Source: Nanobdellota archaeon
Lineage (GTDB): Archaea; Nanobdellota; Nanobdellia; Woesearchaeales; JAHJEM01
NCBI GenBank assembly: GCA_043812855.1
Contig: JBDRLR010000076.1
Coordinates: 1 to 41,391, forward strand
Reading direction: 5' to 3'
Length of the DNA stretch: 41,391 nt
Shown here: positions 14,994-39,367 of the stretch, piece after piece
Numbering within the stretch: the stretch's first letter is position 1
How the letters are laid out: the number at the start of each line of letters is the position of its first letter
Notes under the pieces: generated by a model
Database searches by the model: none
Seen by the model: the letters and a program-made list of their open reading frames with translations, nothing else
Told to the model about the DNA's origin: nothing
Position numbers and translations under genes: made by a program

Positions 14994-14996
14994 ATG

Positions 14997-15100: not shown

Positions 15101-15180
15101 TTTTGCCCGGTCCGGATGGCGTTAAACGCGCTTGTTCGCCTGTCTTTGAGTCTGGGCAGTGCGGCGGCGAAAGGCATAAA

Positions 15181-15302
15181 TACTTACTATGTAGGTACTT
15201 ACATTGTAGGATATCATGCCTTTTCCGGTCCGGAAAACTTATAAAGCGATACCTACGGTGTAAGTGGTAGTTTAGCGACAACAGATACTGACATTGTATG
15301 GT
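15181..15302. promoter_or_regulatory. four imperfect copies of the 17-bp palindrome TACTTACA-n-TGTAAGTA around the HTH1 promoter (putative operators)
   Basis: Copies: 15181-15197 TACTTACTATGTAGGTA; 15196-15212 TACTTACATTGTAGGAT; 15250-15266 TACCTACGGTGTAAGTG; 15286-15302 TACTGACATTGTATGGT. They flank TATA 15238-15246 and cover the start codon. A perfect copy lies at 26194-26214. Confidence 0.45.
15238..15246 (+). promoter_or_regulatory. TATA box for HTH1/giant-protein operon
   Basis: CTTATAAAG. The predicted TSS is near 15270, upstream of the GGTGG SD-like element and GTG 15309. Confidence 0.45.
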
Positions 15303-15308
15303 GGGTTG

Positions 15309-15539
15309 GTGAGTACGGCGAAACGCAAGGAACCAAAAGGGATCACGATAGGCGACAGCATCGAGGTGCCAAGCTCCATCTTCCGCGACCGACGCGCGTG
15401 CGTGCTCGAGAGCGTCGTGTACTATCTCAAAGAGACCAAAGGACTGACGTTCCATCAGATCGCCGTGCTGCTCAACCGGGACGACCGCACCATCTGGACC
15501 GCATACACCCGCACCGTGAAGAAGCGGAGGCGACGATGA
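15309..15539 (+). CDS. small helix-turn-helix DNA-binding protein (HTH1; sigma-70 region 4 / LuxR-like HTH)
   Basis: LESVVYYLKETKGLTFHQIAVLLNRDDRTIWTAYTRTVKKRRRR. Paralogue of 25971-26195. GTG 15309 aligns with the paralogue's N-terminus (STAKRK vs MSKKRA); TTG 15294 is an alternative start. The stop overlaps the giant gene's ATG. Confidence 0.7.
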   Translation: MSTAKRKEPKGITIGDSIEVPSSIFRDRRACVLESVVYYLKETKGLTFHQIAVLLNRDDRTIWTAYTRTVKKRRRR

Positions 15540-21500: not shown

Positions 21501-24500
21501 TCAACAACGTCGTCACCTGCGGCGACACGATCAGCAGGGCCGGAAGCTACATCGCGAACGCGAGCGTCAGCAACTACGGCGGAGTCGGAGCGATATGCGT
21601 CAAGATCAACGTGAGTGACGTGAACCTGGACTGCAAAGGATACACGTTCGATGGCACGGACAGCTCAAATTCATATGGCATATACGCCTACGGGACACAG
21701 AGCGTCTGGACCAGGAACGTCACGGTCGGCAACTGCTCGTTGAACGACTGGAGCATCGGTCTCGACTATGTGTACCTCAATTCAGGACTGATAATCGACT
21801 CCAATGTCACCAGCGGCCGCTCTGGTGGAACAAGCTTCTTCATCGCGATAACAAACCAGACGAACATCACACGCGTCGTGAGCAGCGGCACGACGTACGG
21901 CATCAGGACGTCAAACACCAACAACAGCATGATACGGAACTCGACCGCCACGGACATCACTAGTCTGCACATAGTCTCTTCAGAAAACATCACATTACAA
22001 GGGATCAGCGCCAGCACAGGGACCACACTCGTCACCGTACAGTCCGGAGAGAATGTGAGCATCATCGATAGCGTCTTCGACTCATTCACAACCACAGGCA
22101 TCGAGCTTGACTATACCAACCGAATCACCATGACCAATCTGACACTCACTCATCCGACGGGAAGCAGCGCGAACGGCATCCTGTTCGTAGGATCAGGGAA
22201 CAACAGCGTGACCAACACGACAATCAGACGGATCGCAAGAGCGATAGATATGAATGGCTTTGCTGCCCTCAGCCTTCGCGCGGACGGAAACCTCATCGCC
22301 AACAACACGTTCGAGGACAATCAGTACGGAGTCTATATAGGCCCTACGACATCAAACACGATAGTAATCCTCAACAATATCACGTCGAACCGGATCATCA
22401 ACAGCAGCGAGTACGGCATCTACATCAGCATGGTCAATGCAGCCAACATCACCAACAACACCATCTGGAACAACTTCCTCAACAACACCAACAACAGCAA
22501 TGTCACGGACGGAACGTACAACGCATGGAACACGAGCAACACCACCGCCACCAACATCATCGGCGGAACGAAGATCATCGGCAACTACTGGGCATGGCCA
22601 AACGGAAGCGGATATTCGCAGACCTGCGCGGACCTCGACAACGACGACATATGCGACCAAGCATACACCCTGGCTGCGCAGAACGTCGACTACTGGCCGC
22701 TGACCGACCCCAACCGTGCGCCCTACATGAATGGTTCGCGCATCTCGCCGACGACCGCATACGTCAGCGACAAACTTCTAGGATACTGCAACGGCACGGA
22801 CCTCGACAACGACAACCTGACATACTACTACTCGTGGTACGTGGACGGAGTCAAGAACCAGACTGGCAGCAACAACAACGCGAGCATCCGCTTCTTTCCG
22901 GGAGTGGAAGCGAATGTGAACAATGTCACGAGCAACAATCTCGCCGCGGGCCAAAGCTGGATGCTGGAATGCATCGCGTACGACGGAGCATCCAACAGCT
23001 CAAAGATGAACAGCAGCAGCCTTGCCATCCAGAACAGCCTGCCTGCGGTGACGAACGTGCACATCGAGCCGGACCCAGCCATCACGACCGACACGCTGCG
23101 AGGATACTGCACGGCCACGGACGCCAACAGCCAGAACGTCACGTACAACTGGGCATGGTACCGCAACGGGACGGTGTACAGCACCGGACGGGAGGCTGGG
23201 ACTGCCTCCACTGTCACCATCAGACCCGACGGAGCCGGAGAGAACACACAGATCGAGTTCCAAGTCCCTGGCAGCGACAGCCACTGGGACAAGGTGGACG
23301 AGGCGACGGCGGACGACGATACCACGTACGTCTATACTGACCAACTCTCGTCGACTCCCAATACGACCCTAGACTTGTACACACTTGAATCTCCAGGCAT
23401 ATCGGATGGAACCATCAGCAAGATTGTGGTCACCGCTCGCCTCTATCAGTACGCGATCGGGGACGCATACGTGAAGAGGAGGTTCTCCGTGCGTACATCA
23501 TCCACCTACTATTCCACGCAGGCAAACCTCATCTTTGGTTGGCGCACAGCATCCAATACTTGGAACACTGATCCCGCAGGAGGAAGCTGGACGTGGAGCG
23601 CCATCGAAACACTGCAAGCAGGCATGGAGCTCGAAGTACAAGGCGATGATGTTCTGTCGGCAGTGGCTGGATTGTCTCAAGTCTATGCAATCATATCATA
23701 CAAGACCAACGTCCCCAACCACACGCAAGGCGTGGAATTCAACATCGCAAACATCTCCAACTCACTGACATCACACAACCAACTGTGGGTCCTCGAATGC
23801 TGGGCGGAGGACGGAATCGGCAACGGCACGAAGGTCAACAGCACCGCGCTGAACATCTCCAACTCGCCGCCCAACACGCCCACGCTCATCGCGCCAAGCA
23901 ATGACAACCAGACGGTGCACGAGCGACGCTTCGACTTCGACTGGAGCACCACCGACCTCGACAGCGACCCTCTGACGTACAACATCAACATCACCAGCAA
24001 CACCGGATGCGCAGGAGACATCCACATCACCGGCGACACGTACTCCAACTACACACCCACCGTCAATCTGTGCACCGTGGATGAAGACGGCGGGACGAAC
24101 GTCTACAACTGGACCGTCCAGGCATGTGACCCCCACGATTGCAGCGCATGGAGCGAAAGCTGGAACTTCACCATCGAACCCTACGTCTCCATCGCGTTCC
24201 TCAACAACGAGATCAACTTCGGCGACCTGCGATTGGGAGAGTGGAACGACACCAGCGACGACGACCCGCCCCCGTTCACGCTCGAGAACCAAGGGAACGT
24301 CCTGGCCGAAGTCATCAACGTCACCGCCAACGCATCCATATGGAGCAGCCAGCCGCTCGGCAGCGAATACTGGCAGATCAAAGCCGACAACTCCAGCGAG
24401 CCCGACTCATTCAACTGGTCCAATAGCACCACCAACTACGTGCCCATCAGCGCAAGCAACCAATCCATCATCGGCAGCCTGCTGTGGAACGACACCTCAG

Positions 24501-24598
24501 ACACCGTCGAGATCGACATCAACGTCAGCGTCCCCATGCAAGAACCGCCAGGGAACAAGACCGCCAAAGTCATCATCTGGTTCACCCAACTCACATGA
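15536..24598 (+). CDS. giant (~3020 aa) N-terminally anchored surface adhesin-like protein
   Basis: ATG 15536 follows GGAGG (15526-15530) and overlaps the HTH1 stop (ATGA). Domain order: ~85-aa charged coiled-coil N-terminus; one TM (AVAAIGAMLFVLFVVVMWL, ~15800-15856); Ig/cadherin-like modules; CBM-like jelly roll (NGDFEEG...YVIDAVQL, ~17210-17700); two tandem 105-aa modules (18308-18937); LamG-like module (LRFDGTNDYLNL...ADEIIVFNRAL, ~19060-19680); parallel beta-helix/NosD-like regions (~19800-22700, with GNYWAWPNGSGY..DLDNDDICD); further L-x-C..WY-x-NG..W-x-C-E..DG modules; an FN3-like module; and a C-terminal subunit-like domain (24176-24595). N-x-S/T sequons are very dense. Confidence 0.9.
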   Translation: MNEKIIAASKEIERLTHERDSTITTLEKYEHENYVGVLTDAEYFHRVIELTGGISEQQYIAGLNKAIGKKQEELEKLRKKYEGHDERKAVAAIGAMLFVLFVVVMWLPSGPTGYAVLDANTTVNAVPNITLVDEARLNISDILPDVDPAGVTVEMTRMPQVRLGYSDGILTFTSTGFPGQYTVRLTISDSETSITTDWFTITVLKDTAPTISGAPMHGPVEFGKPVTWTQTITAENTLLERIDKRIPVRLPRGYETLLIQDQDTGSSIDTFEITDVTADAVALDVRDEVGAGEEKTYTFTYTTPGPEKVEESIDRFTKRVRVSSVYNYSNVTVSADIGGYPAEAVRVWWMSDAGRALMDAALIDLDVDGLVDRAEWQVPHFSEQEFLVEITILNVQSYPAVGGTWTVRFNTTGVGDLAVRVINGTSWDDENDDFDLTFAQLQCGEDIIDASFITLTGQTSYVLVPNYTCNSTGGEISGVNTPGKHHLEFEFGGQKAWANNDASVITLLSPGNRTITSNQYVNFSCYVSDGDGIANITLYTNASGTWKANETEYPYGINLLAPNGDFEEGLGVMNTRNETMWNCVTGTCTRNTTSYVEGSSSMTIAGSNAYLRRYFDPPFDATGGVANTSQIEAGKTYTLSYWLKTDLTGGSMNVAYLGGITTAEYGVNPAIGLSISGSSAWTFYNITFTITAVGAQPQIRLPWPSGTSGGYVIDAVQLTQGTAPRAFTDDRYGYIGIEMDNGCTVPGACYTARTGANITYTLNNFTRISPSGSFYDQDFEHCQDTSRCQMNFTIQNVTYDGQYRMMVFGRDLNLTAGGIEFSDDGTTWNDYFEATGYALRYLKNITITGGKSDTMHFRKYAVDSGHHGWLDRIILVPITLTNYTANFSSINLSDGAFEWACRLIDNTSVTTFAAQNYTLFIGNVAPDQPIPNITGIGGTNNTNEDINCSAIITDPNANTTDVTVRWYNNSEFVLVEYFNNSYVNGTLFNATLGAGNTTRGDTWTCEMRLYDGNLHSGWGNSSTIAIANSAPDTQTPNISSVDGSNMSSADLNCSSIIGDLDGDTLDVSVRWYNNSEFALVDYYNNSYVNGTLFNATLGAGNTSGKDRWNCEIRTGDGTETSAWANSSAISIIDTTPPIITFVSPSPGNASTVYARWTSLSATVVDASRTAAWFDWNRSLLGYWSMEYSNATGILDNSTHDVTAQFKNGLNASGLHTGLFGTALRFDGTNDYLNLTSLISARNVTYGGWFYFDDFSCPGDYCVPMQQATSGDVGYEMYTDTTGKLWCYDGALASPTAGVTISAGTWHHIMCWHNSTHFGLYVNGTLQGVTRASTANPVAEDLVVGGGVDQNSYWFNGSADEIIVFNRALGGDEILTLFNNSANALAHNFTSLDAGTYNYTAYAMDDSGNLKITDVRNVVVDPDCSVDGTELIITTYKTCSNSTMRPTNLTINSGGTLMLDGVNLTVTGNTTVKSGGVLDVRNSHDSVWYNGPVTVTGLNNYSGVTVHMNGTCDGCVWMNVTGTIDMTDTTFTNGDDAASQYLFRAQPGAIVNIRGSLIEQSGYADTTYGRGPLIQSDYANITNTTFGDNFYGLVLDGAMHAHIHNSSLSAGTGGVSIYLRYANWTTINTTDIQTTSMALNCYQSGNVSVMNSTMTATPGTDFLQQVYMNDCDDWNITDTNITMHDNPAVQTDNVYLENSDRSIWSRVNITHEITIDASSGIMLQTSHDALFLSSYVEGMTWNPISAVDSEGFTAVDTKIVTGDGGDSAIFVSNSALTFLNVTHSANTVITASGGVIINKHRLRFAVKDDQGDAVDSVSVTLYNKTAQSEYGLTSGSDGNTTWNNATQYIQTGTTAFTYYSNYSANATHAGYTTASTTFNHTTSGTRNITISATPALSSGPNITNDPKLFNDIACKAVVRDADSSTLYVNYSWYKNGAKQISGQQAATNNTLATVTLTANYTINGESWQCEITPYDTFGYGTSTNSSAVTVNNVVTCGDTISRAGSYIANASVSNYGGVGAICVKINVSDVNLDCKGYTFDGTDSSNSYGIYAYGTQSVWTRNVTVGNCSLNDWSIGLDYVYLNSGLIIDSNVTSGRSGGTSFFIAITNQTNITRVVSSGTTYGIRTSNTNNSMIRNSTATDITSLHIVSSENITLQGISASTGTTLVTVQSGENVSIIDSVFDSFTTTGIELDYTNRITMTNLTLTHPTGSSANGILFVGSGNNSVTNTTIRRIARAIDMNGFAALSLRADGNLIANNTFEDNQYGVYIGPTTSNTIVILNNITSNRIINSSEYGIYISMVNAANITNNTIWNNFLNNTNNSNVTDGTYNAWNTSNTTATNIIGGTKIIGNYWAWPNGSGYSQTCADLDNDDICDQAYTLAAQNVDYWPLTDPNRAPYMNGSRISPTTAYVSDKLLGYCNGTDLDNDNLTYYYSWYVDGVKNQTGSNNNASIRFFPGVEANVNNVTSNNLAAGQSWMLECIAYDGASNSSKMNSSSLAIQNSLPAVTNVHIEPDPAITTDTLRGYCTATDANSQNVTYNWAWYRNGTVYSTGREAGTASTVTIRPDGAGENTQIEFQVPGSDSHWDKVDEATADDDTTYVYTDQLSSTPNTTLDLYTLESPGISDGTISKIVVTARLYQYAIGDAYVKRRFSVRTSSTYYSTQANLIFGWRTASNTWNTDPAGGSWTWSAIETLQAGMELEVQGDDVLSAVAGLSQVYAIISYKTNVPNHTQGVEFNIANISNSLTSHNQLWVLECWAEDGIGNGTKVNSTALNISNSPPNTPTLIAPSNDNQTVHERRFDFDWSTTDLDSDPLTYNINITSNTGCAGDIHITGDTYSNYTPTVNLCTVDEDGGTNVYNWTVQACDPHDCSAWSESWNFTIEPYVSIAFLNNEINFGDLRLGEWNDTSDDDPPPFTLENQGNVLAEVINVTANASIWSSQPLGSEYWQIKADNSSEPDSFNWSNSTTNYVPISASNQSIIGSLLWNDTSDTVEIDINVSVPMQEPPGNKTAKVIIWFTQLT
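18308..18937 (+). repeat. tandem duplication, 2 x 315 nt (105-aa Ig-like module) inside the giant gene
   Basis: Units start at 18308 and 18623. They share an identical 38-mer, GGGACGCTGTTCAACGCGACGCTCGGAGCAGGGAACAC, and the protein block VRWYNNSEF.LV.Y.NNSYVNGTLFNATLGAGNT. Confidence 0.85.
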
Positions 24599-26195: not shown

Positions 26196-26214
26196 TACTT
26201 ACACTGTAAGTATC
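26194..26214. promoter_or_regulatory. perfect 21-bp palindrome GATACTTACA-C-TGTAAGTATC (putative HTH operator and/or terminator hairpin)
   Basis: It starts inside the HTH2 stop codon and shares its core with the four sites at 15181-15302. Confidence 0.5.
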
Positions 26215-26223
26215 GAGCTCCTG

Positions 26224-29643: not shown

Positions 29644-31587
29644 ATGAAAAATGGCGGAATGCTCGTCGTGACACTTCTTCTCCTTGGCTTCGCCATCACC
29701 AGCAACGCCTACATCGTCATCAAGACCAAACAGATCACAGGCGCGGCGGTCGGAGAAGTGAGACTGTGCATCAACAACAAACCCGCAATGAGCAACCCTT
29801 GCTCGACATCCATGACGCAAGGCATCTACTTCAGCTGCAACGTCAACGGAAGCGACTACGACAACGATACGCTGACGTACAGCTCCACCTTCCTTTCCAG
29901 CCCGACCGTCTTCACCATCCGTAGCAACGGCACCATCGCCGTGACGCCGACCAACGCCGATGTGGGCAACCACACCGCCAACATCACCCTCGCCGACGAC
30001 GTCGGATGCCCAGACAACTCAGCATGGGAACTGTACCGCTTCGACGTCTCGAACGTCAACGACCCGCCCATCCTCACCCAGACTATCCCCGACCAAAGCC
30101 TCACCGAAGGAGTGAGGACCAGCGTCTTCTTCCTCACCGACCACTTCACCGACCCCGACGGAGACGCTATGACATTCACCGCATCCATCACCAGCGCATA
30201 CGAAATCACGATCCTCGCCAGCGGAGAAGTCCAGATGCTCGTGGAAGACTGCCAGGACACCACAGAATACGTCATCTTCACCGCAACCGACCCCTACAAC
30301 GCCACGACCGACAGCAACGTCGTCGAACTCACCTGCACCCAAGCAGGAAGCGGTGGAGGCGGTGGAGGCGGCGGAGGTGGAGGTGGAGGCGGAGGCAGCG
30401 GAGCCATCTCTGAGTGCGAATCAGAACTCTACTGCAACGCATGGTCGAACTGCAGCATCTACGCAACACAACAGCGACGATGCTACGACATCGGCGGATG
30501 CAAGGACGACATCTTCCTGCGACGCGCATGCCTCTACGCGGACACCTGCACCAACGGAGTCTGGGACACGGGAGAGCTTGGCGTCGACTGCGGCGGCCCC
30601 TGCGACGCGTGCGGCACCTGTAGCGACGGCATCCGCAACCAAGGAGAGCTTGGCGTCGACTGCGGCGGCTCCTGCGACGCGTGCGCCACCTGCTACGACG
30701 GGACGCAGAACCAAGACGAAGAAGGCGTCGACTGCGGCGGCTCCTGCGCCGCATGCGGGACGTGCGGCGACGGCATCAAGAACAACGACGAGACATCGAT
30801 CGACTGCGGCGGCTCCTGCGCGCCCTGCACAGAATTCCAGACACCAGGCATATTCGCGCTGCAATCCATCGTCGTACGGCTGCTCATGATCATGTCCATC
30901 ATCCTCATCCTGCTCGCGCTGCTCGCCCTCTTCGCCCGCAAGTGGCTACGCAAGACCCTGCAGAAGCTCGGCCTGATCAAAGACCACGTCAAATCCATCC
31001 TGCTCACCCCTGAGAAGAAACAGCAATTCCTCGAGAGGATCTATACGGTGGAGTCCGCCATCCCCTCCGTGTCGGGCAAGGACAACCAGGAAGCCGTGCT
31101 CTCCCTTCTCATAGACCTCTTCTCCGAGATGCTCAAGACACCTCGCGGCGTCACGCAAGCGGAACTGGACCGCATACTCCACACCCTGCCTCTGCAGGAA
31201 GACACGCGAAAACTGCTCATCCGCTTCGCCGCCCTCATCCACCTGCTCGAAGCCTCCAGGCTCAACGCCGACGAATGGGAAGTGAGGTCATGGACCGAGC
31301 AAGCCCGAACGCTTGTCGCCTGCGTGGCTCACTGCACATCAGATGACTTCAAACGCACCACCAGTCACGTGGAGATCGAAGCGAAAGGAGAGGCGCCGGT
31401 GCAATTCGCCCGACGCGTGGTCGATATGCTCATCGCCCTGCAGTTCCGCGAATACAGCCTTGCCGCAAAGAAATACCTGGTCCTGCAAGGCAAGTACGAC
31501 ACCCTGAGCGAACCGCGAAAGACCAGGGCTTACGCGGACCTCTATCGCTCGTTCACCATGATCGAGTATCTGCAGAAGTACGAATAG
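29644..31587 (+). CDS. single-pass membrane protein: cadherin-like ectodomains, Gly15 hinge, 4 Cys-rich repeats, TM, ~215-aa helical cytoplasmic domain
   Basis: Signal peptide MLVVTLLLLGFAITSNA. Cadherin-like modules with a VNDPPIL linker. A 15-residue Gly run. Four repeats of the form ..GE.GVDCGG.C.AC.TC. TM IVVRLLMIMSIILILLALLALFA. The C-terminal helical domain resembles 35734-36351. Confidence 0.85.
   Translation: MKNGGMLVVTLLLLGFAITSNAYIVIKTKQITGAAVGEVRLCINNKPAMSNPCSTSMTQGIYFSCNVNGSDYDNDTLTYSSTFLSSPTVFTIRSNGTIAVTPTNADVGNHTANITLADDVGCPDNSAWELYRFDVSNVNDPPILTQTIPDQSLTEGVRTSVFFLTDHFTDPDGDAMTFTASITSAYEITILASGEVQMLVEDCQDTTEYVIFTATDPYNATTDSNVVELTCTQAGSGGGGGGGGGGGGGGGSGAISECESELYCNAWSNCSIYATQQRRCYDIGGCKDDIFLRRACLYADTCTNGVWDTGELGVDCGGPCDACGTCSDGIRNQGELGVDCGGSCDACATCYDGTQNQDEEGVDCGGSCAACGTCGDGIKNNDETSIDCGGSCAPCTEFQTPGIFALQSIVVRLLMIMSIILILLALLALFARKWLRKTLQKLGLIKDHVKSILLTPEKKQQFLERIYTVESAIPSVSGKDNQEAVLSLLIDLFSEMLKTPRGVTQAELDRILHTLPLQEDTRKLLIRFAALIHLLEASRLNADEWEVRSWTEQARTLVACVAHCTSDDFKRTTSHVEIEAKGEAPVQFARRVVDMLIALQFREYSLAAKKYLVLQGKYDTLSEPRKTRAYADLYRSFTMIEYLQKYE
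30352..30396 (+). repeat. (GGN)15 simple repeat encoding a poly-glycine hinge
   Basis: ggt gga ggc ggt gga ggc ggc gga ggt gga ggt gga ggc gga ggc. A second (GGN)9 tract lies at 34985-35011 in the 1232-aa protein. Confidence 0.9.
30547..30834 (+). repeat. 4 x 72-nt tandem repeat encoding 24-aa Cys-rich modules
   Basis: GACTGCGGCGG recurs at 30586, 30658, 30730 and 30802, an exact 72-nt period. Consensus: C-x-(D/N)G-x-x-(N/D)-x-x-E-x-(G/S)(V/I)DCGG-x-C-x-x-C. Confidence 0.9.
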
Positions 31588-31627
31588 TCCAATTCTGGAG
31601 TTATAGAGTCTGTGCCCTAGGAAAACA

Positions 31628-31692
31628 TTTATAAATTAGCGAAGTAAAGGGTGTTCGTTAGCCTCGTGAGCTTCGCGAACTTAGCGAACTTA
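31628..31692 (+). promoter_or_regulatory. TATA box plus repeated TTAGCGAA / GCGAACTTA sites upstream of the RHH genes
   Basis: TTTATAAAT at 31628-31636. TTAGCGAA at 31636-31643 and 31681-31688; TTCGCGAA at 31672-31679. Perfect tandem GCGAACTTA-GCGAACTTA at 31675-31692. Confidence 0.4.
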
Positions 31693-31708
31693 CTTGGGTG
31701 TTTTGACG

Positions 31709-31828
31709 ATGGGAAACATCAACATCGAAATCCCCGACGACCTCCACCAGAAGCTCAAGCTAGGCTCTGTCCTTCGCGACCGCAGCCTCAAAGACCACAT
31801 CATCGACCTTCTCGATCCCCATGGTTAA
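31709..31828 (+). CDS. 39-aa ribbon-helix-helix (CopG/Arc-like) protein, copy A
   Basis: MGNINIEIPDDLHQKLKLGSVLRDRSLKDHIIDLLDPHG follows a strand-helix-turn-helix pattern. Not in the ORF track (under 60 aa). GGGTG lies 8 nt upstream. The stop overlaps the ATG of copy B. Confidence 0.6.
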   Translation: MGNINIEIPDDLHQKLKLGSVLRDRSLKDHIIDLLDPHG

Positions 31829-31958
31829 CATCAACATCCAGATCCCTGACGATCTGCACAAACGGCTGAAACTGCAAGCAGTCGAAGAGAACAAGACGCT
31901 CAAAGCGCATATCATAGCACTACTCCAACATGGCACACATCAACATCCAGATCCCTGA
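31821..31958 (+). CDS. 45-aa ribbon-helix-helix protein, copy B
   Basis: MVNINIQIPDDLHKRLKLQAVEENKTLKAHIIALLQHGTHQHPDP. Its ATG lies within ..CCCCATGGTTAA of copy A. It shares an identical 34-mer with copy C. Confidence 0.6.
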   Translation: MVNINIQIPDDLHKRLKLQAVEENKTLKAHIIALLQHGTHQHPDP

Positions 31959-32052
31959 CGATCTGCACAAGAAACTCAAGCTCGAAGCGGTCAAGGCAGG
32001 CCGCACGCTCAAAGAACACATTATCACGATACTCGAACATGGCCAGAACTAG
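31930..32052 (+). CDS. 40-aa ribbon-helix-helix protein, copy C
   Basis: MAHINIQIPDDLHKKLKLEAVKAGRTLKEHIITILEHGQN. Its 3' end (CATGGCCAGAACTAG) contains the ATG (32039) of the 1232-aa surface protein. Confidence 0.6.
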   Translation: MAHINIQIPDDLHKKLKLEAVKAGRTLKEHIITILEHGQN

Positions 32053-35000
32053 GACGATCGGATACTGCATCGGCGCACTGTCAGCGGCAGCGCTGGTCCT
32101 GTTGCTGGCGGGCATCATCACCGCAATCTCAGTCTCCAGCGGTCCATCCATCACCCCCTCCAATGCCGCCACCAACGACTCACTCAACTGCTCATGGATA
32201 CCGCTCGGCGGAGGGACACTGCTTGCCAACGTCACGTGGTACAACGGCACTTCAGCCTACTCGACCGAGAACGACATCGCATGCGTCAACAACACGCTCT
32301 GCCAGACACCGCTTGGAGTGCTGGGATCCGCGACGATGCGCGACGAGAAGTGGAACTACACCGTCCTCGTGCACAACGGGACCGAGAATGTGACAACGAG
32401 CGTAAGCGTGAACATCTCCAACGCAGACCCGACGATCGAGCCATTCTACAACGTGACGGTCCCTGAAGATAGAGCCTACTCAGTCAGGATCAACGCCACC
32501 GACCCAGAATCAGACACCCTGACCTGGTTCTCCAACGACAACAACTACACCAGCGATCTGTTCACCATCGACCAGGACACGGGATGGATCAACTTCACGC
32601 CCACGCAGAGCCAAGTCGCCAACCACACCATGGACATCATCGTCATCGACGGACACGGAGGAAGCGACACCTTCCGCGTCATCTACACCGTGCAGGAGAT
32701 CAACGATAGACCATACTTCGTGCCCGCCCTCACCGACCAAGCCGCCGTGCAAGACGCCCAATTCACCTACGCCATCATCGGAAACGACGAGGAGAACGAC
32801 ACCATCAACTTCTCACTCTACGCACCGAGCCTGCCCGACCTGCAGCTCAACTGGTCGAACGGCACCATCAGCATCCTGACATTCGGCAGCAACGGAGGCG
32901 CACCACAATACGCAGACGGAGGGACACACACCGTCAACATCACCGTCTACGACGTCGCCAACACCTCGCGCAACCAGTCGCAGAACATCACGCTCACCAT
33001 CACGACCATCAACCAGGATCCCGTCCTTGCGACCATGCCCAACCGCACCGGGACACAAGGCAACAGCTTCTCCGCGTCCATCAACGCCACCGACGTGGAT
33101 GCCGGCGACACGCTCAGTTTCGCGTCCGCAGTCAACTGCAGCCTCCCGAACCCATGGACTGTGACGACGACGAGCAGCGCGGCCAGCGCAGGAGAGGCAT
33201 GGATCAACGTCACGCTCAACAACACCCACGTCGTATGCCCCTGGGTCAACATCACGGTGAGCGACGGCAGCGTCACCGTGTGGCAGCTCGTCTATCTCAA
33301 CATCACCAACACCAACGACGCGCCCAGCATCCACAACATCAGCGTCTACACGGGCAACAACGCGGGGAACGACCTGCGCAACCTCTCAAGCGGCGTGGGA
33401 GCGTCATTCGTGTACCTCGTCAACGCCACCGACCCTGATACGTACACGTACGAGAACGAGACGCTCACATATAGTTCCAACGACAGCCTGTTCGAGATCG
33501 GCGGCGCGACCGGCATCATGTCGCTCGCGCTCAACACCAGCCACGTCGGAAACCGCACCGTCAACATCACCGTCACCGACGACGGCGGGCTGTCGACGAG
33601 CGCCGCACTGAACATCAGCATCGCCAACAACACGGTCCCTGTGTTCGAGAACATCACGCTCGTCAGCTGCGCCGAAGGCATATCGTGCACTGTGTACATC
33701 AACGCGGCCGACCCTGACGACGGAGAGAACCTGACATTCACGAGCAACGACACGACACGATTCCCCATCAATTACCACAACACCACCGCGGTACGGTTCA
33801 ACAAGACATTCGTCCAGGACGCCGTCGGCAACTACAGCATCCTGCTGAACGTCTCCGACATGTTCAACGCCACGGACAACGTCAGCTTCCGCCTTGAAGT
33901 CAACAACACCAACGACGCCCCCTTCTTCGACGAGAACTTCGACAATGCCAGCGACACGATAGCATTCCCCATCATCGTCATCGCGCGCGCATTCACGTAC
34001 TGGATCAACGCTACCGACTACGACATCCCATTGGGCGACCAACTGAACATCAGCTACGTCGTGCTGGACTCGGTCAACGCGAGCCTGCTCAACAGCACCC
34101 AGACCAGCAACAACACCCTGCTGGTGCATGCCACGCCCTCCATCGCGGACATCGGCAACTACAGCATCAACATCACCGTCAACGACACCGCAGGACTGTA
34201 CGCGTGGCAAGTCATCAACTTCACCGTCTACAACAGCAGCCTCCCCCCCAACATCACACAGATCAGACCCTACTACAACACCACCCTCGCCGTGACGCTC
34301 AACTCCACCGTCGACACGTCGTTCTACACGACGACCAACGTGAGCGTCAACGTGTCCGAGAACAGCAGCACACTCTTCAACATCACAGCCATAGACCCCG
34401 ACGGATCCACGGACAACCTGACCATCCTGTGGTACCACGAAGGAATCCTCAACAAGAGCGTGCCATACACGTCGAACACGGGCATGCGGGTCGACTGGGG
34501 ATTCTTCACCAACGGGACACGCAACGTGACCGTCGTCGTGCAAGACGCATACTTCAGCAGCACATCCTGGCACTGGGAAGTGGCGGTCGCGAACATCAAT
34601 CGTGCGCCCTTGCTCATCACCAACCTGCAGAACTTCACCAGCAGCAGCGCCATCAACAGCACCACGACGTTCAACAACTACTTCGGATACTACGACACCC
34701 AACAGCACTTCATCGACCCCGATGACGACCTGAACAGCAACAACCAGACCAGAGACAGCGTATCTGACCCCAACGAGAAGTTCACATTGACTGTGACCGC
34801 GACGACGTGCAGCGTCGCCACCCTCTCCATCACCGGACCCAATCTGACGATCACGCCATCATCGATCGGCACCTGCATCGTCAACTTCACCGCGACCGAC
34901 CAGGACGGCGCCAGCCTCATCTCGAACGCGGTGCGCCTGGAAGTCAGCAGCACGGCGACCGTGGTGACGACCACCGTGTCCTCGGGCGGAGGCGGAGGAG

Positions 35001-35737
35001 GAGGGGGCGGATCAAGCGACACCACGCGCACCCAACTGCTGCCAGTTGACAAGCCAAAAGACGTGCCAAAGCCACTTGAGATCATCGTCCCGGGAAGGGT
35101 CGTGATCTACCAGAACAAGGCCATGCGCATCCCCATCGTCCTGACGAACACATGGAACACGACCATCAGCGGCATCCAGCTCTCAGCCGTCACCAACAAC
35201 ACCCTCGTGGACATGAACTTCAGCACCGACTTCTATCCGACCTTGGAGCCGGGACAGCAGGAGATCTCGGAGCTGACTGTCTCGAACTACCGCGAATACG
35301 GCCCCTACGAGATCCAAATCATCGCCAACGTCACCGACCCGGCATTCACTGACACCGGCACGATCTACATCAACTCGCTGGAAGAGAAGAGCGAGGGAGA
35401 AGACATCAACACCAGGCTCCAGTTCGCACGCGACCTCCTCACGACCAACGTCGAATGCCAAGAGCTCAACGAGCTGCTCGACAAAGCAGACGTGGAACGG
35501 GCGAAGCGCAACTACGACACAGCCATCAACATCGTCGATTCAGTCGTGAACGGATGCAAGTACCTTATCAGCACCACCCAGAACGAGCCGGACAACCAGC
35601 AACCCCTGACCTTCGCGCTCTTCTCGTACGTGATCCCTGGGAATATCGTGCTCATCGCCATGGGCGTCATCGGACTATTGATCTTCGTCGCCCTGATCAT
35701 GCTCATCCTGATGCAGCGCAGAACAAAAGAGGATTAG
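32039..35737 (+). CDS. 1232-aa cadherin-repeat surface protein with C-terminal membrane anchor
   Basis: Signal/anchor MARTRTIGYCIGALSAAALVLLLAGIITAI. N-terminal WY-x-NG Ig-like module shared with the giant protein. About nine ~100-aa cadherin-like repeats with linkers INDRPYF, INQDPVL, TNDAPSI, NNTVPVF, TNDAPFF, INRAPLL. Gly9 hinge. CARDB-like module. Helical stalk. TM IVLIAMGVIGLLIFVALIMLILM followed by RRTKED. Dense N-x-S/T sequons. Confidence 0.9.
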   Translation: MARTRTIGYCIGALSAAALVLLLAGIITAISVSSGPSITPSNAATNDSLNCSWIPLGGGTLLANVTWYNGTSAYSTENDIACVNNTLCQTPLGVLGSATMRDEKWNYTVLVHNGTENVTTSVSVNISNADPTIEPFYNVTVPEDRAYSVRINATDPESDTLTWFSNDNNYTSDLFTIDQDTGWINFTPTQSQVANHTMDIIVIDGHGGSDTFRVIYTVQEINDRPYFVPALTDQAAVQDAQFTYAIIGNDEENDTINFSLYAPSLPDLQLNWSNGTISILTFGSNGGAPQYADGGTHTVNITVYDVANTSRNQSQNITLTITTINQDPVLATMPNRTGTQGNSFSASINATDVDAGDTLSFASAVNCSLPNPWTVTTTSSAASAGEAWINVTLNNTHVVCPWVNITVSDGSVTVWQLVYLNITNTNDAPSIHNISVYTGNNAGNDLRNLSSGVGASFVYLVNATDPDTYTYENETLTYSSNDSLFEIGGATGIMSLALNTSHVGNRTVNITVTDDGGLSTSAALNISIANNTVPVFENITLVSCAEGISCTVYINAADPDDGENLTFTSNDTTRFPINYHNTTAVRFNKTFVQDAVGNYSILLNVSDMFNATDNVSFRLEVNNTNDAPFFDENFDNASDTIAFPIIVIARAFTYWINATDYDIPLGDQLNISYVVLDSVNASLLNSTQTSNNTLLVHATPSIADIGNYSINITVNDTAGLYAWQVINFTVYNSSLPPNITQIRPYYNTTLAVTLNSTVDTSFYTTTNVSVNVSENSSTLFNITAIDPDGSTDNLTILWYHEGILNKSVPYTSNTGMRVDWGFFTNGTRNVTVVVQDAYFSSTSWHWEVAVANINRAPLLITNLQNFTSSSAINSTTTFNNYFGYYDTQQHFIDPDDDLNSNNQTRDSVSDPNEKFTLTVTATTCSVATLSITGPNLTITPSSIGTCIVNFTATDQDGASLISNAVRLEVSSTATVVTTTVSSGGGGGGGGGSSDTTRTQLLPVDKPKDVPKPLEIIVPGRVVIYQNKAMRIPIVLTNTWNTTISGIQLSAVTNNTLVDMNFSTDFYPTLEPGQQEISELTVSNYREYGPYEIQIIANVTDPAFTDTGTIYINSLEEKSEGEDINTRLQFARDLLTTNVECQELNELLDKADVERAKRNYDTAINIVDSVVNGCKYLISTTQNEPDNQQPLTFALFSYVIPGNIVLIAMGVIGLLIFVALIMLILMQRRTKED

Positions 35738-36513: not shown

Positions 36514-37506
<993 letters not shown>

Positions 37507-37509
37507 ACC

Positions 37510-38412
37510 ATGCCACTCAAAGAGCTTCGCGTCGATCTGGCGCCCGGATTCAAGCGCATAGACATCAAAGGACGACGCGACATCCTCAGCCGCATCCTCG
37601 AAGGGCACTTCGTCACCCTCTTCAAGGGGAAAGGCATGGAGTTCACAGGGTATCGTTCCTACTCCTATGGCGACGACGCAAGCCTCATCGACTGGCCGGC
37701 GTCGCTTCGCTCACGCGAGACGCTGGTTAAGGAATTCGAGACATACCGCAACCTGTCCGTGTACATCCTGCTCGACGTGTCCAACAGCATGCTCTTCACC
37801 TCGACACGCGCCAACAAGCTCAAAGTCGAATACGCCGCGGAGCTGGCAAGCAGCCTCGCCTGGGCGGTGCTGCGCACCAACAACTCAGTCGGCATGAGCA
37901 TGTTCAACGACCATCTCGTGAATCGGATCTACCCCGACATCGGACAAGGCATGATCCGACGCATAAACAAAGACCTTTCCGACCCGCAGAAATACGGAGG
38001 CAACTTCGATCTGCGCCGCGCGCTGCAGGAACTGCGCGCATTCTACAAGGACAAGGCCGTGCTCATCATCATCTCAGACTTCCTAGGCATGAACGAAGGA
38101 TGGGAGCGATACCTCACCGGACTGCACGACCAGTTCGAACTGCTCGGAATCATGATCCGCGACCCACGCGACAACACCTTGCCGCACATGTACGGACAGG
38201 TCCGCGTCCAAGACCCCTACAGCGATGACGTCATGCTCGTCGACATCCACCAATACCGCGAAGAGTACGCCAAGACAGTAGAGGAAGAGGAGAAGCGGCT
38301 CCGAAACGCGTTCGGGGTGAGCAAGTACAGCTTCTTGTCCATCATGACGACCGACGACTTCAACGAGAAGATCATGAACTTCTTCCGCAGACGCGCAAGC
38401 ATACGAGGATAA
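37510..38412 (+). CDS. DUF58-domain protein (MoxR partner)
   Basis: GKGMEFTGYRSYSYGDDASLIDWPASLRSRETLVKEFE...VYILLDVSNSM matches the DUF58 pattern. It starts 4 nt after the MoxR stop. Confidence 0.85.
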   Translation: MPLKELRVDLAPGFKRIDIKGRRDILSRILEGHFVTLFKGKGMEFTGYRSYSYGDDASLIDWPASLRSRETLVKEFETYRNLSVYILLDVSNSMLFTSTRANKLKVEYAAELASSLAWAVLRTNNSVGMSMFNDHLVNRIYPDIGQGMIRRINKDLSDPQKYGGNFDLRRALQELRAFYKDKAVLIIISDFLGMNEGWERYLTGLHDQFELLGIMIRDPRDNTLPHMYGQVRVQDPYSDDVMLVDIHQYREEYAKTVEEEEKRLRNAFGVSKYSFLSIMTTDDFNEKIMNFFRRRASIRG

Positions 38413-38413
38413 T

Positions 38414-39367
38414 ATGCAGATCACGTTCGAACACCCCCAATTCCTATGGCTGCTCATCCTGGTGCCTGCAGTCATCATCTTCCACTTCGTCTTCATCCGC
38501 TACAGCCACATCAACGCCATGCGCTTCGCCAACTTCCGCGCACTCAAACGCGTGACCGGCCGCGGCAAGACCACACGCAACCTCACGTTGCTCTTCATCC
38601 GGGTCGTCGCCCTCCTCGCGCTCATCCTGGGCGCATCAGGACTCGCCGTGTGGTACAGCGCTACCGTTGACCGCAACGACTACGTCATCGCCATCGACAC
38701 GTCAGCATCCATGACTGCGGAGGACTTCACGCCCAACCGGCTCGAGATGGCAAAGGGGATCGTGAACGACTTCGTCGAAGCGCTTCCTCCCGACGTGCAA
38801 GTCGGCCTTCTGACCTTCTCCGGCGTGACGCTCATCCAGCAGACCATGACTGTCGATCGATTCGTCATCCTCGACTCGTTGTCAGGCATCGAAGTCGAGA
38901 AGGCGGGAGGGACCGACATCCCCGGCGCAATCATCAGCGGCGCCAACATGCTGCAGACCAGCGAGCAAGGACGCACATTGATCATCATCACGGACGGATC
39001 GAGCACCGTCGGGGCATTCACGGCGGACGCCATCGCGAAGGCCGCCGCGTACGCGGCCGAGAAACACGTCAAGATATACGCCATAGGCATCGGAAGCGAC
39101 ACCGGACCGATCGGATACCTGCCCGAATACTACAATGTGTCCGCGACGTACAACGAAGACACCCTCGTGCAGATCACGAACGCGACCGGCGGAATCTACA
39201 TGCGTCTCCTGGACCCTACGGCGGACGAGCCATTCCAACCACTGATCGATGGTCGGACCCGAGGCGAGACCCGACGCGACCTGGCGGGACTTCTGCTGCT
39301 GATCGCCATCCTCTCATTGTTCGTGGACTGGACGCTATCGAACACTATTTATAGACAACTACCCTGA
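38414..39367 (+). CDS. VWA-domain membrane protein (BatA-like)
   Basis: N-terminal TM after FEHPQFLWLLILVP. MIDAS motif VIAIDTSASM. PNRLEMAK. C-terminal TM LLLLIAILSLFV. Confidence 0.85.
   Translation: MQITFEHPQFLWLLILVPAVIIFHFVFIRYSHINAMRFANFRALKRVTGRGKTTRNLTLLFIRVVALLALILGASGLAVWYSATVDRNDYVIAIDTSASMTAEDFTPNRLEMAKGIVNDFVEALPPDVQVGLLTFSGVTLIQQTMTVDRFVILDSLSGIEVEKAGGTDIPGAIISGANMLQTSEQGRTLIIITDGSSTVGAFTADAIAKAAAYAAEKHVKIYAIGIGSDTGPIGYLPEYYNVSATYNEDTLVQITNATGGIYMRLLDPTADEPFQPLIDGRTRGETRRDLAGLLLLIAILSLFVDWTLSNTIYRQLP

Follow-up and report, generated by a model that had tools for sequence, protein, structure and literature searches.

In the window, a 41,391-nt stretch of DNA from a Nanobdellota archaeon, the interval 31620-35737 is probably a single operon in which dimers of ribbon-helix-helix (RHH) proteins bind a set of 9-bp boxes and control transcription of their own genes together with that of a 1232-aa surface protein. 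The arrangement is not peculiar to the window: judged by comparison with related loci, it is a lineage-wide module of Woesearchaeota-type DPANN archaea. Woesearchaeota and related DPANN are uncultured and have very small genomes, and to our knowledge few of their transcription factors have any known target. From sequence alone, the module connects a family of regulators with a DNA motif and with a target gene, and as the peptides are short enough for chemical synthesis, the regulatory link could easily be tested. An earlier note on this DNA had held the arrangement to be undescribed. No description of the module was found in the literature on RHH or S-layer proteins of Woesearchaeota and DPANN or in that on tandem RHH proteins; the arrangement is nevertheless not unique, since it occurs throughout the lineage and a second triple array with rotating frames exists (locus L073).

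Organization of the Gene Array

The features of the locus are listed in Table 1. The start codons of the three small genes and of the large gene lie at 31709, 31821, 31930, and 32039, which gives units of 112, 109, and 109 nt. The earlier note had described units of these lengths in different frames, and the ATG positions and ORFs agree with it: A, B, and C use one frame each, all three different, with a shift of +1 from each to the next (109 = 3 x 36 + 1). The genes overlap by 8 nt (A/B), 29 nt (B/C), and 14 nt (C/large gene). Each downstream ATG of the array is contained in a CATGG, the fourth starting the 1232-aa gene, again as had been described. Ig-domain surface proteins are encoded upstream of the locus, and downstream of it one ORF is followed by MoxR, DUF58, and VWA genes.

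Table 1: Positions of the features of the locus within the window.
Feature	Position	Strand	Remarks
Purine-rich GGAAAACA	31620-31627	+	Just upstream of the TATA-like element
TATA-box-like element TTTATAAA	31628..31635	+	Read from the sequence; presumed archaeal promoter of the operon
Putative operator, seven in-phase 9-bp units	31632..31694	.	Position weight matrix from other loci
Strong box TAAATTAGC	31632-31640	.	Overlaps the TATA box
Four degenerate 9-bp units	31641-31676	.	Between the strong boxes
Strong box GAACTTAGC	31677-31685	.	Putative operator unit
Strong box GAACTTACT	31686-31694	.	Putative operator unit
GGGTG, Shine-Dalgarno-like	31696..31700	+	8 nt upstream of the ATG of copy A
Mini-RHH gene A	31709..31828	+	39 aa, MGNINIEIPDDLHQKLKLGSVLRDRSLKDHIIDLLDPHG; profile score 81.9 bits
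Mini-RHH gene B	31821..31958	+	45 aa, MVNINIQIPDDLHKRLKLQAVEENKTLKAHIIALLQHGTHQHPDP; profile score 87.3 bits
Mini-RHH gene C	31930..32052	+	40 aa, MAHINIQIPDDLHKKLKLEAVKAGRTLKEHIITILEHGQN; hypothetical protein ABIH41_02990 (MFH1400459.1) at NCBI
Large surface glycoprotein gene	32039..35737	+	1232 aa

The 109-nt period was recovered by Tandem Repeats Finder at 31828-32043 with 75% matches. A 34-mer is shared exactly by copies B and C (31828-31861 = 31937-31970), as reported before, but the recent duplication read from it was overstated: the cores of B and C are only 69% identical, so that the duplication was not very recent. Gene conversion, or constraint on a conserved N-terminus, would account better for the 34-mer. 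A terminal HG had also been ascribed to every copy and is found in copy A only, B continuing for 7 residues (THQHPDP) and C for 2 (QN). The HG is not conserved in the family and arises because the start of the next gene sits within the coding sequence; in the same way the RHH core of B comprises residues 1-38, and its last 7 residues come from reading the beginning of C out of frame. If made separately, the peptides would end in ..HIIDLLDPHG (A), ..AHIIALLQHGTHQHPDP (B), and ..EHIITILEHGQN (C).

Coding Status of the Small ORFs

The pattern of substitutions identifies A, B, and C as protein-coding genes. Differences between the copies of the window fall mainly on the third codon position (from 9/6/15 to 11/11/23 for the first, second, and third positions), and the corresponding counts across 186 inter-locus pairs are 1519/669/3189. 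The peptide M-x-N-I-N-I-E/Q-I-P-D-E/D-L-H-K-K-L-K is kept across loci whose GC content ranges from 21 to 65%. In a six-frame scan with a profile derived from the copies, each copy was found with E = 1e-24 to 4e-26, values to which the partial construction of the model from these same copies contributes; against the same profile, independent homologues on other contigs gave E = 1e-11 to 1e-21. The public annotation lacks genes A and B, and the protein collection holds C but not the exact sequences of A or B, while homologues elsewhere are misnamed as HicB antitoxins. Exact searches for contigs that encode A, B, C, or the 1232-aa protein gave no match.

The Small Proteins as Minimal RHH Proteins

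The proposal of the earlier note that the genes encode minimal RHH proteins is supported by the ranking of Pfam families, a profile search of the PDB, an AlphaFold2 model, and Foldseek. The top-ranked Pfam matches of the window copies are all RHH families (FitA-like_RHH, RHH_10, HicB C-terminal RHH, ParD, and Omega), with every match under the threshold of its own family (best score 24.4 bits; cut-offs 21-33 bits). Copy A matched ParD, RHH_10, and FitA-like_RHH, and copy B matched RHH_10 at E = 3.6e-5, all below threshold. The HicB matches span only positions 19-50 of the 51 in the profile, that is, the RHH part. Among the Pfam families matched by family members at E<=0.01, 12 of 13 are RHH; ParD or HicB-RHH was matched by 47 of 75 members (E<=0.01, best about 1e-7) and RHH_10 by 34 of the 75, and weak matches to Omega_Repress were obtained for copy C and 11 of the 75. 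None of the copies matched an NCBIfam model, antitoxin models included. The profile search of the PDB returned seven weak matches (E between 0.02 and 0.6), including ParD, omega, CopG, and ParG, and the search with one copy gave marginal matches to Mnt (E = 0.18) and ParD (0.58) together with a spurious one to myoglobin.

Copy C was modelled with AlphaFold2 from 123 homologues at a pLDDT of 89.9, with residues 1-9 predicted as extended and helices at 10-22 and 27-38. The best Foldseek matches of this model were nearly all RHH proteins (Arc, CopG, AmrZ, PutA-RHH, and FitA), with TM-scores of 0.8-0.9 and probabilities of 0.9-1.0; the E-values, for a domain of this length, do not reach significance. 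When copy C was aligned with Mnt, His3, Asn5, and Gln7 fell on His6, Asn8, and Arg10 of Mnt, which are residues through which Mnt contacts DNA. The presumed DNA-reading residues N-x-N-x-E/Q are conserved to the same degree as the 9-bp box. The turn between the helices, G/x-x-S/T/N, is present as AGRT-LK in C, ENKT-LK in B, and RDRS-LK in A; across the family Thr26 is conserved to at least 90% and Lys28 to at least 90% or invariant. In RHH proteins the N-terminus of helix 2 at such a turn faces the DNA backbone, and a contact with phosphate is presumed here by analogy.

Promoter, 9-bp Boxes, and Translation Signals

A box motif, TAACTTAG(T/C), recurs throughout the family in the stretch that separates the TATA box from the first small gene; of 46 related loci, 44 have a TATA-like element on the upstream side of the box array. 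Over the 46 loci 184 boxes were observed, compared with 49.7 +/- 6.8 in dinucleotide shuffles. Their density upstream of the arrays is 4.0 per 120 nt as against 0.31 in other ORF-free regions, and ACTTAG is enriched there about 100-fold. The boxes, about 2-7 per array, occur in both orientations; a spacing of 9 nt was seen 38 times, and multiples of 9 recur. The median box array starts 17.5 nt after the start of the TATA element and ends 22.5 nt before the ATG. Boxes are kept in GC-rich genomes as well.

When the window was scanned with the matrix from other loci, nowhere in its 41 kb were box matches as densely clustered as at 31630-31696. The region 31628-31692, proposed earlier as a site for binding assays, indeed holds the conserved boxes. 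The strong boxes at 31632 and 31677 are 45 nt apart (5 x 9 nt), and Tandem Repeats Finder reports a 9-nt repeat at 31671-31692. Within the window alone the 9-mer GAACTTAGC, with one mismatch allowed, is not enriched (4 matches, 4.9 expected), so the significance of the boxes rests on clustering, phasing, and comparison across loci. Only three boxes of the window are good ones, and the two best are found some 18-35 nt past the expected start of transcription, which makes a block of RNA polymerase recruitment less obvious here than in loci where the boxes abut the TATA element. Motif matches at 15180-15270 and 26196-26216 belong to a different palindromic motif and are not 9-bp boxes.

A Shine-Dalgarno-like element is found only before A and not before B, C, or the large gene. 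Since the latter three start inside the preceding ORF, we infer that their translation is coupled. In related loci GGTG-type motifs precede 15 of 46 first small genes and 9 of 39 later ones (background 11%), statistics that are too weak as proof of coupling. In archaea, translation of overlapping gene pairs is coupled, and subunits of heteromeric complexes are overrepresented among such pairs (PMC6728339, PMC10666635). The overlaps of the window (8, 14, and 29 nt) exceed the 1- and 4-nt overlaps for which coupling has been measured (PMC10666635), so that translation of B, C, and the large gene by reinitiation can only be conjectured.

Related Loci

A search with copy C alone retrieved itself and one relative, and an alignment had to be used as query to find the family. 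It comprises at least 352 clusters at 90% identity in the public protein collection, and the module is known in roughly 90 loci from genome bins and metagenomes. A comparison of copy number in orthologous loci, suggested earlier, gave 1, 2, 3, or 4 small genes per locus, and the copies within an array are 46-97% identical. The closest relatives have two copies, so the third copy of the window would derive from a tandem duplication in which one self-contained unit, from ATG to ATG, was repeated. Most relatives have stop codons and gaps of 1-106 nt between the copies, which stand in no constant frame relation; spacers vary or overlaps differ, yet every unit is an intact ORF. The coupling to the gene of a surface protein, noted earlier for the window, extends to homologous loci: the orthologue of the 1232-aa protein lies directly downstream in all 42 that have enough downstream DNA. 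At the junction of small and large gene, relatives often have ATGA or longer overlaps. The nearest relative, L047, shares with the window the downstream MoxR-DUF58-VWA genes, and a Tricorn-like gene lies upstream in L047 and L049.

In L010, two copies are fused into one 102-aa ORF, which is present on several contigs. The fusion is predicted to form strand-helix-helix, linker, and strand-helix-helix, both strands being in sheet conformation, and in structure it is most closely matched by the single-chain tandem RHH proteins TraY and AvtR and by single-chain Arc. As a prediction from sequence and model, it supports indirectly the formation of dimers between paralogous copies. At least one array of the family lies in another context: the outlier L073, the second triple array with rotating frames, has neither boxes nor large protein and follows a MinD/ParA-like ORF, assigned by eye from its translation. 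Distant RHH homologues that lack the large protein also lack the boxes.

The 1232-aa Surface Protein

The predicted 1232-aa protein has an N-terminal signal or anchor, a poly-Gly linker, a C-terminal membrane anchor, and 80 N-X-S/T sequons, and its Pfam domains are Ig-like (Big_9/He_PIG/cadherin-like). Against the PDB its sole match was cadherin-23 (E = 2e-5), and no S-layer protein of solved structure was matched. In all 34 complete orthologues, a hydrophobic segment at the N-terminus is combined with a C-terminal transmembrane segment that has a charged tail, and there is no internal transmembrane segment; they carry 52-89 N-X-S/T sequons, or 4.1-7.6 per 100 aa. The orthologues are 1130-1334 aa long, and database entries name the homologues "putative Ig domain-containing protein" or hypothetical. 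In its predicted signal, sequons, and anchor, the protein has what is expected of archaeal S-layer/envelope glycoproteins. The comparison singles out one conserved, membrane-anchored protein of roughly 1200-1330 aa, heavily glycosylated by its sequons, as a strong candidate for the role of main envelope or host-contact protein in the group. It could equally be a host-attachment adhesin as form an S-layer lattice.

Proposed Mechanism

We propose that the operon reads, in order, TATA promoter, TAACTTAG-type boxes, three mini-RHH genes, and the gene of the 1232-aa surface protein. The small proteins would form RHH homodimers or heterodimers between paralogues; since single-copy loci exist, heterodimers are not required. 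The two-stranded ribbon would present Asn3, Asn5, and Glu/Gln7 to the DNA, and one 9-bp box would be read per dimer. The phased array covers the DNA from the TATA box to the first start codon, and dimers bound side by side on it would set transcription of their own operon. The boxes lie over or just downstream of the expected transcription start, and negative feedback on the surface-protein gene is for this reason the most likely outcome. Translational coupling would tie the dose of the regulators to the output.

In its widest form, the proposal would see in the module a DPANN-specific circuit dedicated to control of the main glycoprotein with which Woesearchaeota build their envelope or attach. 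RHH homo- and heterodimers would coat the phased 9-bp operator, their dose would be set by coupling and by the number of units, and duplication, gene conversion, and fusion would retune expression of the surface protein between lineages and perhaps between subpopulations. This we offer as a speculation with perhaps one chance in a few of being right.

The 109-nt repeats could instead be a non-coding leader or a repeat array, for instance an RNA element, with the frames accidental. The ORFs are very short, two of the three lack annotation, and the period is not a multiple of three. However, the amino acids are conserved while nucleotides and GC content (21-65%) diverge with a strong third-position bias, relatives keep intact ORFs despite variable spacers and overlaps, the predicted fold is confident, and Rfam has no family in the array region (two tRNAs lie elsewhere in the window). 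The comparative data effectively refute the non-coding reading, and we give it almost no weight. Hardly more credible is programmed +1 frameshifting that would join the units into one multi-RHH polypeptide, possibly running into the surface protein. The shift of +1 from unit to unit and the natural in-frame fusion of two units in L010 are in keeping with it, but the stops, the gaps, and the lack of a constant frame in most relatives show that it is not conserved, each unit begins with an ATG of its own at the conserved position 1, and the signal or anchor sequence of the large protein must be N-terminal. We also consider it most improbable that the small ORFs are antitoxins of type II toxin-antitoxin systems or remnants of such. 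It is true that HicB, ParD, FitA, and CopG-type antitoxins have the RHH fold in common with the mini-RHH proteins, that antitoxin RHH families provide the best, sub-threshold, Pfam matches, and that some homologues are named "toxin-antitoxin system HicB family antitoxin" or "predicted HicB family RNase H-like nuclease". However, the Pfam matches extend no further than the DNA-binding fold common to both, and the NCBIfam antitoxin models are unmatched. The proteins consist of the RHH core alone (residues 2-38 of 39-45 aa), with neither the neutralising C-terminal extension nor the N-terminal domain of HicB; no toxin gene is adjacent, the surface protein being downstream in 42 of 42 loci, and the neighbouring ORFs of the window include no toxin family. 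The antitoxin names in the databases are transfers based on fold alone and are misleading.

A more serious alternative, though one that we judge unlikely, accepts both the RHH proteins and the boxes and denies that they form a simple autorepressor pair. The boxes would then be a core-promoter or leader element specific to the lineage, or a site for a different factor, and the RHH proteins would be activators of the operon, regulators of other genes, or architectural proteins in the manner of the centromere-binding omega and ParG. The triple array of L073, which follows a MinD/ParA-like ORF and has neither boxes nor large protein, fits this reading, as does the position of the strongest boxes of the window in the predicted 5' leader and not over the TATA box or start site; in addition, several family members weakly match omega and ParG in Pfam or the PDB. 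On the other hand, boxes accompany the RHH genes in nearly every locus and are missing from the distant RHH loci, their two orientations and 9-bp phasing suit a protein on duplex DNA and not an RNA leader element, and the N-x-N-x-E/Q residues are as conserved as the box. Moreover, no ParA gene adjoins the array in the window, L047, or L049. On this evidence we prefer autoregulation by RHH dimers bound to the boxes.

Comparison with Known Systems

Omega, an RHH protein, binds arrays of 7-bp repeats, direct and inverted, at promoters that it autoregulates (PMC9499535). The omega/ParB system of pSM19035, like ParG and MetJ, thus resembles the present locus in combining a small RHH protein with arrays of short units at a promoter. 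The similarity in sequence to omega and ParG is marginal (E of about 0.04-0.08 against the PDB). Unlike in the omega and ParG systems, there is no ParA partner or partition context in the window, and the proteins have no disordered N-terminal tail, the strand of the model starting at residue 2-3. The units here are of 9 bp and not of the 7 or 8 bp of omega, ParG, and MetJ, and the promoter is an archaeal TATA promoter. In contrast to omega, there are 1-4 paralogous genes rather than one, and the gene downstream encodes a giant surface glycoprotein.

Arc, Mnt, and CopG are of the same size class (CopG has 45 aa) and fold, with Foldseek TM-scores of 0.82-0.87 to Arc and CopG, and stand at the head of the operon that they repress. 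The mini-RHH array likewise heads an operon, which it would repress. With 39-40 aa, the proteins described here are at or below the size of the smallest characterised members. Their candidate operator is a phased 9-bp array, whereas Arc, Mnt, and CopG bind as tetramers to a pseudo-palindrome of 13-21 bp. The locus is also archaeal, chromosomal, and conserved in a lineage, in contrast to the phage and plasmid loci of these repressors.

The archaeal RHH protein CdrS of Halobacteria and other archaea is co-transcribed with ftsZ2, which it regulates, and has been reported in every major archaeal group except DPANN (PMC7439475). The likeness lies in the fold and in a small RHH-only archaeal protein encoded just upstream of a structural gene, the pair being conserved throughout a wide clade (PMC7439475). 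The partner of CdrS is, however, the tubulin homologue FtsZ2 and not a surface glycoprotein, and CdrS is a single gene for which no 9-bp box array has been described, as opposed to a tandem overlapping array.

The fusion of L010 is predicted to form an intramolecular pair similar to those of the single-chain tandem RHH proteins TraY, AvtR, and VirC2. The window differs from these in that its copies are separate, overlapping genes and in that there is no relaxosome or viral context. Taken together with the L010 fusion, the overlapping arrays of rotating frame may illustrate how gene overlap, duplication, and fusion relate to complexes between paralogues.

Coding evidence for the small ORFs

Upon reading positions 31400-32300 for ORFs of at least 20 aa, we recovered the tandem units that the earlier note had placed upstream of the surface-protein gene, with ATGs spaced by 112, 109 and 109 nt (see the table); Tandem Repeats Finder reports a 109-nt period. 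A six-frame profile scan confirmed that each copy lies in its own frame, A, B and C occupying all three. The overlaps are 8 nt (A/B), 29 nt (B/C) and 14 nt (C/large gene). The terminal HG ascribed to every copy was found in A only, B continuing for seven more residues and C for two. The 34-mer shared by B and C was verified (31828-31861 is identical to 31937-31970), but the duplication is not very recent as had been proposed, since the B and C cores are only 69% identical. Copy C (MFH1400459.1) and the 1232-aa protein are present in the public protein collection, with locus tags ABIH41_. Copies A and B (31709-31828 and 31821-31958) were not found there and were thus never annotated; the deposited annotation therefore seems to lack two real genes, probably because overlaps of this kind are disallowed by gene callers.

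Features of the window and of related loci
Feature	Sequence	Coordinates	Remarks
ORF A	window	31709-31828	39 aa; MGNINIEIPDDLHQKLKLGSVLRDRSLKDHIIDLLDPHG
ORF B	window	31821-31958	45 aa; MVNINIQIPDDLHKRLKLQAVEENKTLKAHIIALLQHGTHQHPDP
ORF C	window	31930-32052	40 aa; MAHINIQIPDDLHKKLKLEAVKAGRTLKEHIITILEHGQN
Large gene	window	32039-35737	1232 aa
TATA box	window	31628-31635	TTTATAAA
Box	window	31632-31640	TAAATTAGC; overlaps TATA box
Box	window	31677-31685	GAACTTAGC
Box	window	31686-31694	GAACTTACT
GGGTG	window	31696-31700	Shine-Dalgarno-like
Surface protein	window	29644-31587	647 aa
MoxR-DUF58-VWA genes	window	36514-39367
MoxR-DUF58-VWA genes	L047	9125-11705
Palindromes	window	15180-15270	ATACTTACAnTGTAAGTAT type; three variants within 15183-15268
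Palindrome	window	26196-26216	ATACTTACAnTGTAAGTAT type; perfect
Small ORF	window	15294-15539	beside palindromes
Small ORF, paralogue	window	ends near 26195	beside palindrome
Giant ORF	window	15398-24598	3066 aa
tRNA gene	window	14894-14993	minus strand
tRNA gene	window	14996-15068	minus strand
Array	L033	5158-5484
Array	L037	3762-4030
Array	L036	4127-4570	four copies
Triple array	L073	340-746	period 124 nt
Fused unit pair	L010	971-1279	102 aa

The differences between the copies at codon positions 1/2/3 are 11/11/23 (A-B), 9/9/18 (A-C) and 9/6/15 (B-C), with synonymous changes in Leu, Ile, Lys, Asp, Pro and His codons. A pattern scan with one genome per species yielded 45 loci, all labelled Woesearchaeota, Nanoarchaeota or 'uncultured Methanosarcinales', and a metagenome scan yielded 64 more. 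In a six-frame profile scan of the loci, the peptide occurs in arrays and exclusively on the expected strand. Between loci, 186 gene pairs of 3-30% divergence differ 1519/669/3189 times at the three codon positions, and the consensus MVNINIEIPDELHKKxKL..A...D.TLK..II..L is retained from 21% to 65% GC. Two such peptides are also encoded on L001, an AT-rich contig of 682 bp (24% GC), where their genes are separate and do not overlap. On this comparative evidence the small ORFs are genes. An alignment-based search placed at least 352 protein clusters in the family, the majority unnamed or 'hypothetical' and some called 'HicB family antitoxin'. Bins deposited as 'uncultured Methanosarcinales archaeon' (L004, L010, L011, L015, L018, L022, L023, L028, L031, L034, L041 and L043-L045) share the RHH and surface-protein module with Woesearchaeota bins; these labels are probably wrong.

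Predicted ribbon-helix-helix fold

The top-ranked Pfam matches of the window copies are all RHH families, each under its curated cut-off; over 75 family members they are ParD (47), the RHH part of HicB (47), RHH_10 (34) and Omega_Repress (11). The family profile, compared with PDB sequences, gave E-values of 0.02-0.6 for ParD, ParG, omega and a CopG-family protein. AlphaFold2 modelled copy C with 123 homologues at a pLDDT of 89.9, as an extended segment (residues 1-9) followed by helices 10-22 and 27-38. The best Foldseek matches of the model were Arc, CopG, AmrZ, the PutA RHH domain, FitA and RHH antitoxins (TM-scores 0.8-0.9; E-values not significant, as expected for 40 residues). The predicted structure and its structural matches support the RHH fold that had been proposed. 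His3, Asn5 and Gln7 of copy C align with His6, Asn8 and Arg10 of Mnt, which we take to be its base-contacting residues, so that Ile4, Ile6 and Ile8 would face the hydrophobic core. This N-x-N-x-E/Q strand is the best-conserved part of the family.

Copy number, overlap and fusion

A copy-number comparison of orthologous loci, as the earlier note had suggested, found arrays of one, two, three or four units. Among the genome loci, 11 have one copy, about 31 have two, one has three (L035) and one has four (L036); the metagenome loci comprise 23 single copies, 37 pairs, one triplet (L073) and no quadruplet. Two copies are found in L047 and L049, and at least two in L048; these are the loci whose large protein is nearest to that of the window (48-50% identity). 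The first copy of both L047 and L049 terminates ..KKHGKH(QH) because the next ATG sits inside CATGGCAAACAT, the same construction as in window B/C. Since the near relatives L047 and L049 have two copies, and L047 also shares downstream genes with the window, the third copy of the window is a lineage-specific extra duplication. The 8-nt overlap ATGGTTAA (or ATGACTAA) is also found in L006, L015 and L073, because the M-V/T-N codons make a TAA stop in the preceding frame.

Across arrays, neighbouring copies share between 46% and 97% protein identity. The value is 83-97% in some loci (L033, L037 and L036) and about 50% in others, a spread indicating that duplication or gene conversion within arrays was repeated and independent. 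Duplication or homogenisation of arrays took place repeatedly, in L033, L037, L035, L036 and L007, and the two copies of other loci are old paralogues.

L073 holds a second triple frame-rotating array, with overlaps of 8 and 14 nt, between a MinD/ParA-like and a small DUF167-like ORF (both assigned by eye). This locus has neither 9-bp boxes nor a large surface protein, so the family is not strictly confined to the surface-protein operon. In L010 a proline-rich linker joins two units into one reading frame; counting this very sequence and a nearly identical variant, the fusion is found on four contigs, so that it is no assembly error. Folded without an alignment (pLDDT 77), the fusion consists of strand 2-9, two helices, the linker, strand 56-63 and two helices. 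Structurally it comes closest to known single-chain tandem RHH proteins, namely F-plasmid relaxosome TraY, archaeal-virus AvtR, VirC2 and an engineered single-chain Arc, and its predicted fold is likewise a single-chain RHH pair. As Rosetta-stone-type evidence, this fusion suggests that copies 1 and 2 can pair with each other, and the existence of single-copy loci indicates that homodimers suffice.

The surface-protein partner

The proposed coupling of the array to the large gene was borne out: a full-length collinear orthologue lies directly downstream, on the same strand, in all 42 related loci whose downstream sequence exceeds about 900 nt. The 34 complete orthologues (1132-1334 aa) all have an N-terminal hydrophobic segment and a C-terminal transmembrane segment with a charged tail, no internal transmembrane segment, and 52-89 N-X-S/T sequons each. 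The junction with the last small gene is often ATGA, sometimes an 11-20-nt overlap as in the window and sometimes a 2-127-nt gap. The 1232-aa protein matches Big_9, He_PIG and cadherin-like Ig domains in Pfam, and cadherin-23 was its sole match among PDB sequences; its homologues are named hypothetical or 'putative Ig domain-containing protein'. By architecture and by density of sequons it is a candidate envelope (S-layer-type) glycoprotein, and a host-attachment adhesin would fit equally well. S-layer genes were among the highest-expressed Woesearchaeota genes in a metatranscriptome study, in which nothing ties them to the 1232-aa family (PMC11606122).

Past one opposite-strand ORF 3' of the surface-protein gene lie genes for a MoxR-type AAA ATPase, DUF58 and VWA/BatA proteins. 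The same trio follows the gene in L047, the closest relative, and the wider neighbourhood is thus conserved. The 647-aa surface protein and the 1232-aa protein contain poly-glycine runs of 17 and 9 Gly; the former has four Cys-rich G(V/I)DCGGxCxxC repeats before a transmembrane segment and a cytoplasmic tail.

A phased 9-bp box array

For all loci, the 130 nt preceding the first small gene were aligned by eye, and repeated AACTTA/TAAGTT motifs were seen downstream of a TATA-like box. The 6-mers ACTTAG and AACTTA are enriched about 100-fold and 49-fold over the rest of the loci, and the 9-bp consensus is T-A-A-C-T-T-A-G/T-T/C. Neighbouring boxes of the same orientation are 9 nt apart 38 times, with multiples of 9 recurring, and those of opposite orientation are 7 or 11 nt apart. 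In 46 upstream regions 184 box cores were counted, against 49.7 +/- 6.8 (maximum 70) in dinucleotide-preserving shuffles; per 120 nt there are 4.0 of them, compared with 0.31 in other ORF-free regions of the same loci. The arrays start a median of 17.5 nt past the TATA-box start and end a median of 22.5 nt short of the ATG, thus covering the expected transcription start and early leader. Boxes are kept in GC-rich genomes (e.g., L017, L020, L023 and L029) and were not found in loci that lack the large protein and whose RHH genes are all distant relatives.

The element is present in the window too, in a weaker form than in other loci. With a matrix built from the other loci, the densest cluster of the 41 kb falls at 31630-31696, in agreement with the operator region that had been proposed upstream of A. 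The first and second boxes are 45 nt (5 x 9) apart, with four degenerate units between them. The window by itself shows no enrichment of the 9-mer, and the case for the boxes rests on clustering, phasing and conservation.

A second motif, unlike the 9-bp boxes, consists of palindromes adjoining a pair of small paralogous ORFs, whose products terminate in ...LLNRD(D/E)RTIWT...KKRR and look helix-turn-helix-like. One of these ORFs is directly upstream of the 3066-aa giant ORF, overlapping its listed start, and may form a second small-regulator/giant surface-protein gene pairing on the contig.

Alternative readings and proposed regulation

A non-coding repeat or leader, the outcome by which the earlier note would have abandoned the genes, is rejected by the third-position bias and the peptide conserved across loci; the lack of an Rfam match at the array region also counts against it. 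That A, B and C are units of one protein joined by frameshifting is unlikely, as spacing and frame relations vary freely among loci and the large protein requires its own N-terminal signal. Database names favour antitoxins, a reading we reject: none of the 42 loci has a toxin partner, the family proteins have no extension past the RHH core, and the window copies have no NCBIfam match.

The data establish three intact minimal-RHH genes, a conserved operon-like linkage to the surface glycoprotein gene and, lying between the promoter and gene A or its counterpart, a conserved phased box array. RHH dimers would bind side by side, one per box, through the N-x-N-x-E/Q ribbon. Omega binds in this manner to 7-bp repeats, both direct and inverted (PMC9499535); the boxes here are of 9 bp. 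The array extends over the start-site region of an archaeal promoter, so that its occupancy would most likely block transcription, and the most likely outcome would be negative autoregulation of the RHH regulators together with the surface protein. Alternatively, proteins and boxes may both be real and their relation, or its sign, be other than simple autorepression.

For translation, the GGGTG element precedes gene A only and B, C and the large gene each start inside the preceding ORF, which suggests that these three may be translated by termination-reinitiation coupling. Such coupling has been shown in Archaea at 1- and 4-nt overlaps and is linked to subunits of heteromeric complexes (PMC6728339, PMC10666635); the 8, 14 and 29 nt of the window exceed these lengths and leave this step uncertain. 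In architecture the nearest precedent among archaea is CdrS, a small RHH protein that shares a transcript with ftsZ2, the gene it regulates; CdrS is reported absent from DPANN (PMC7439475).

Each element on its own is already known, namely RHH autoregulators, operators made of repeat arrays, operons headed by small RHH genes and overlapping genes that are coupled. We found no published description of this 39-45-aa mini-RHH family, of its 9-bp box, of its strict linkage, throughout a DPANN lineage, to a giant surface glycoprotein, or of arrays of 1-4 overlapping, sometimes fused, frame-rotating RHH units; the family, box, linkage and array evolution appear to be undescribed. The triple array of the window is one variant of this wider module, which is unusually easy to test since its proteins are accessible by peptide synthesis.

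Adjacent tRNA genes

Rfam finds two adjacent tRNA genes on the contig, and ARAGORN reports tRNA-Asn only. The other Rfam match spans 100 nt and probably contains an intron; an intron-containing tRNA fits the archaeal origin.
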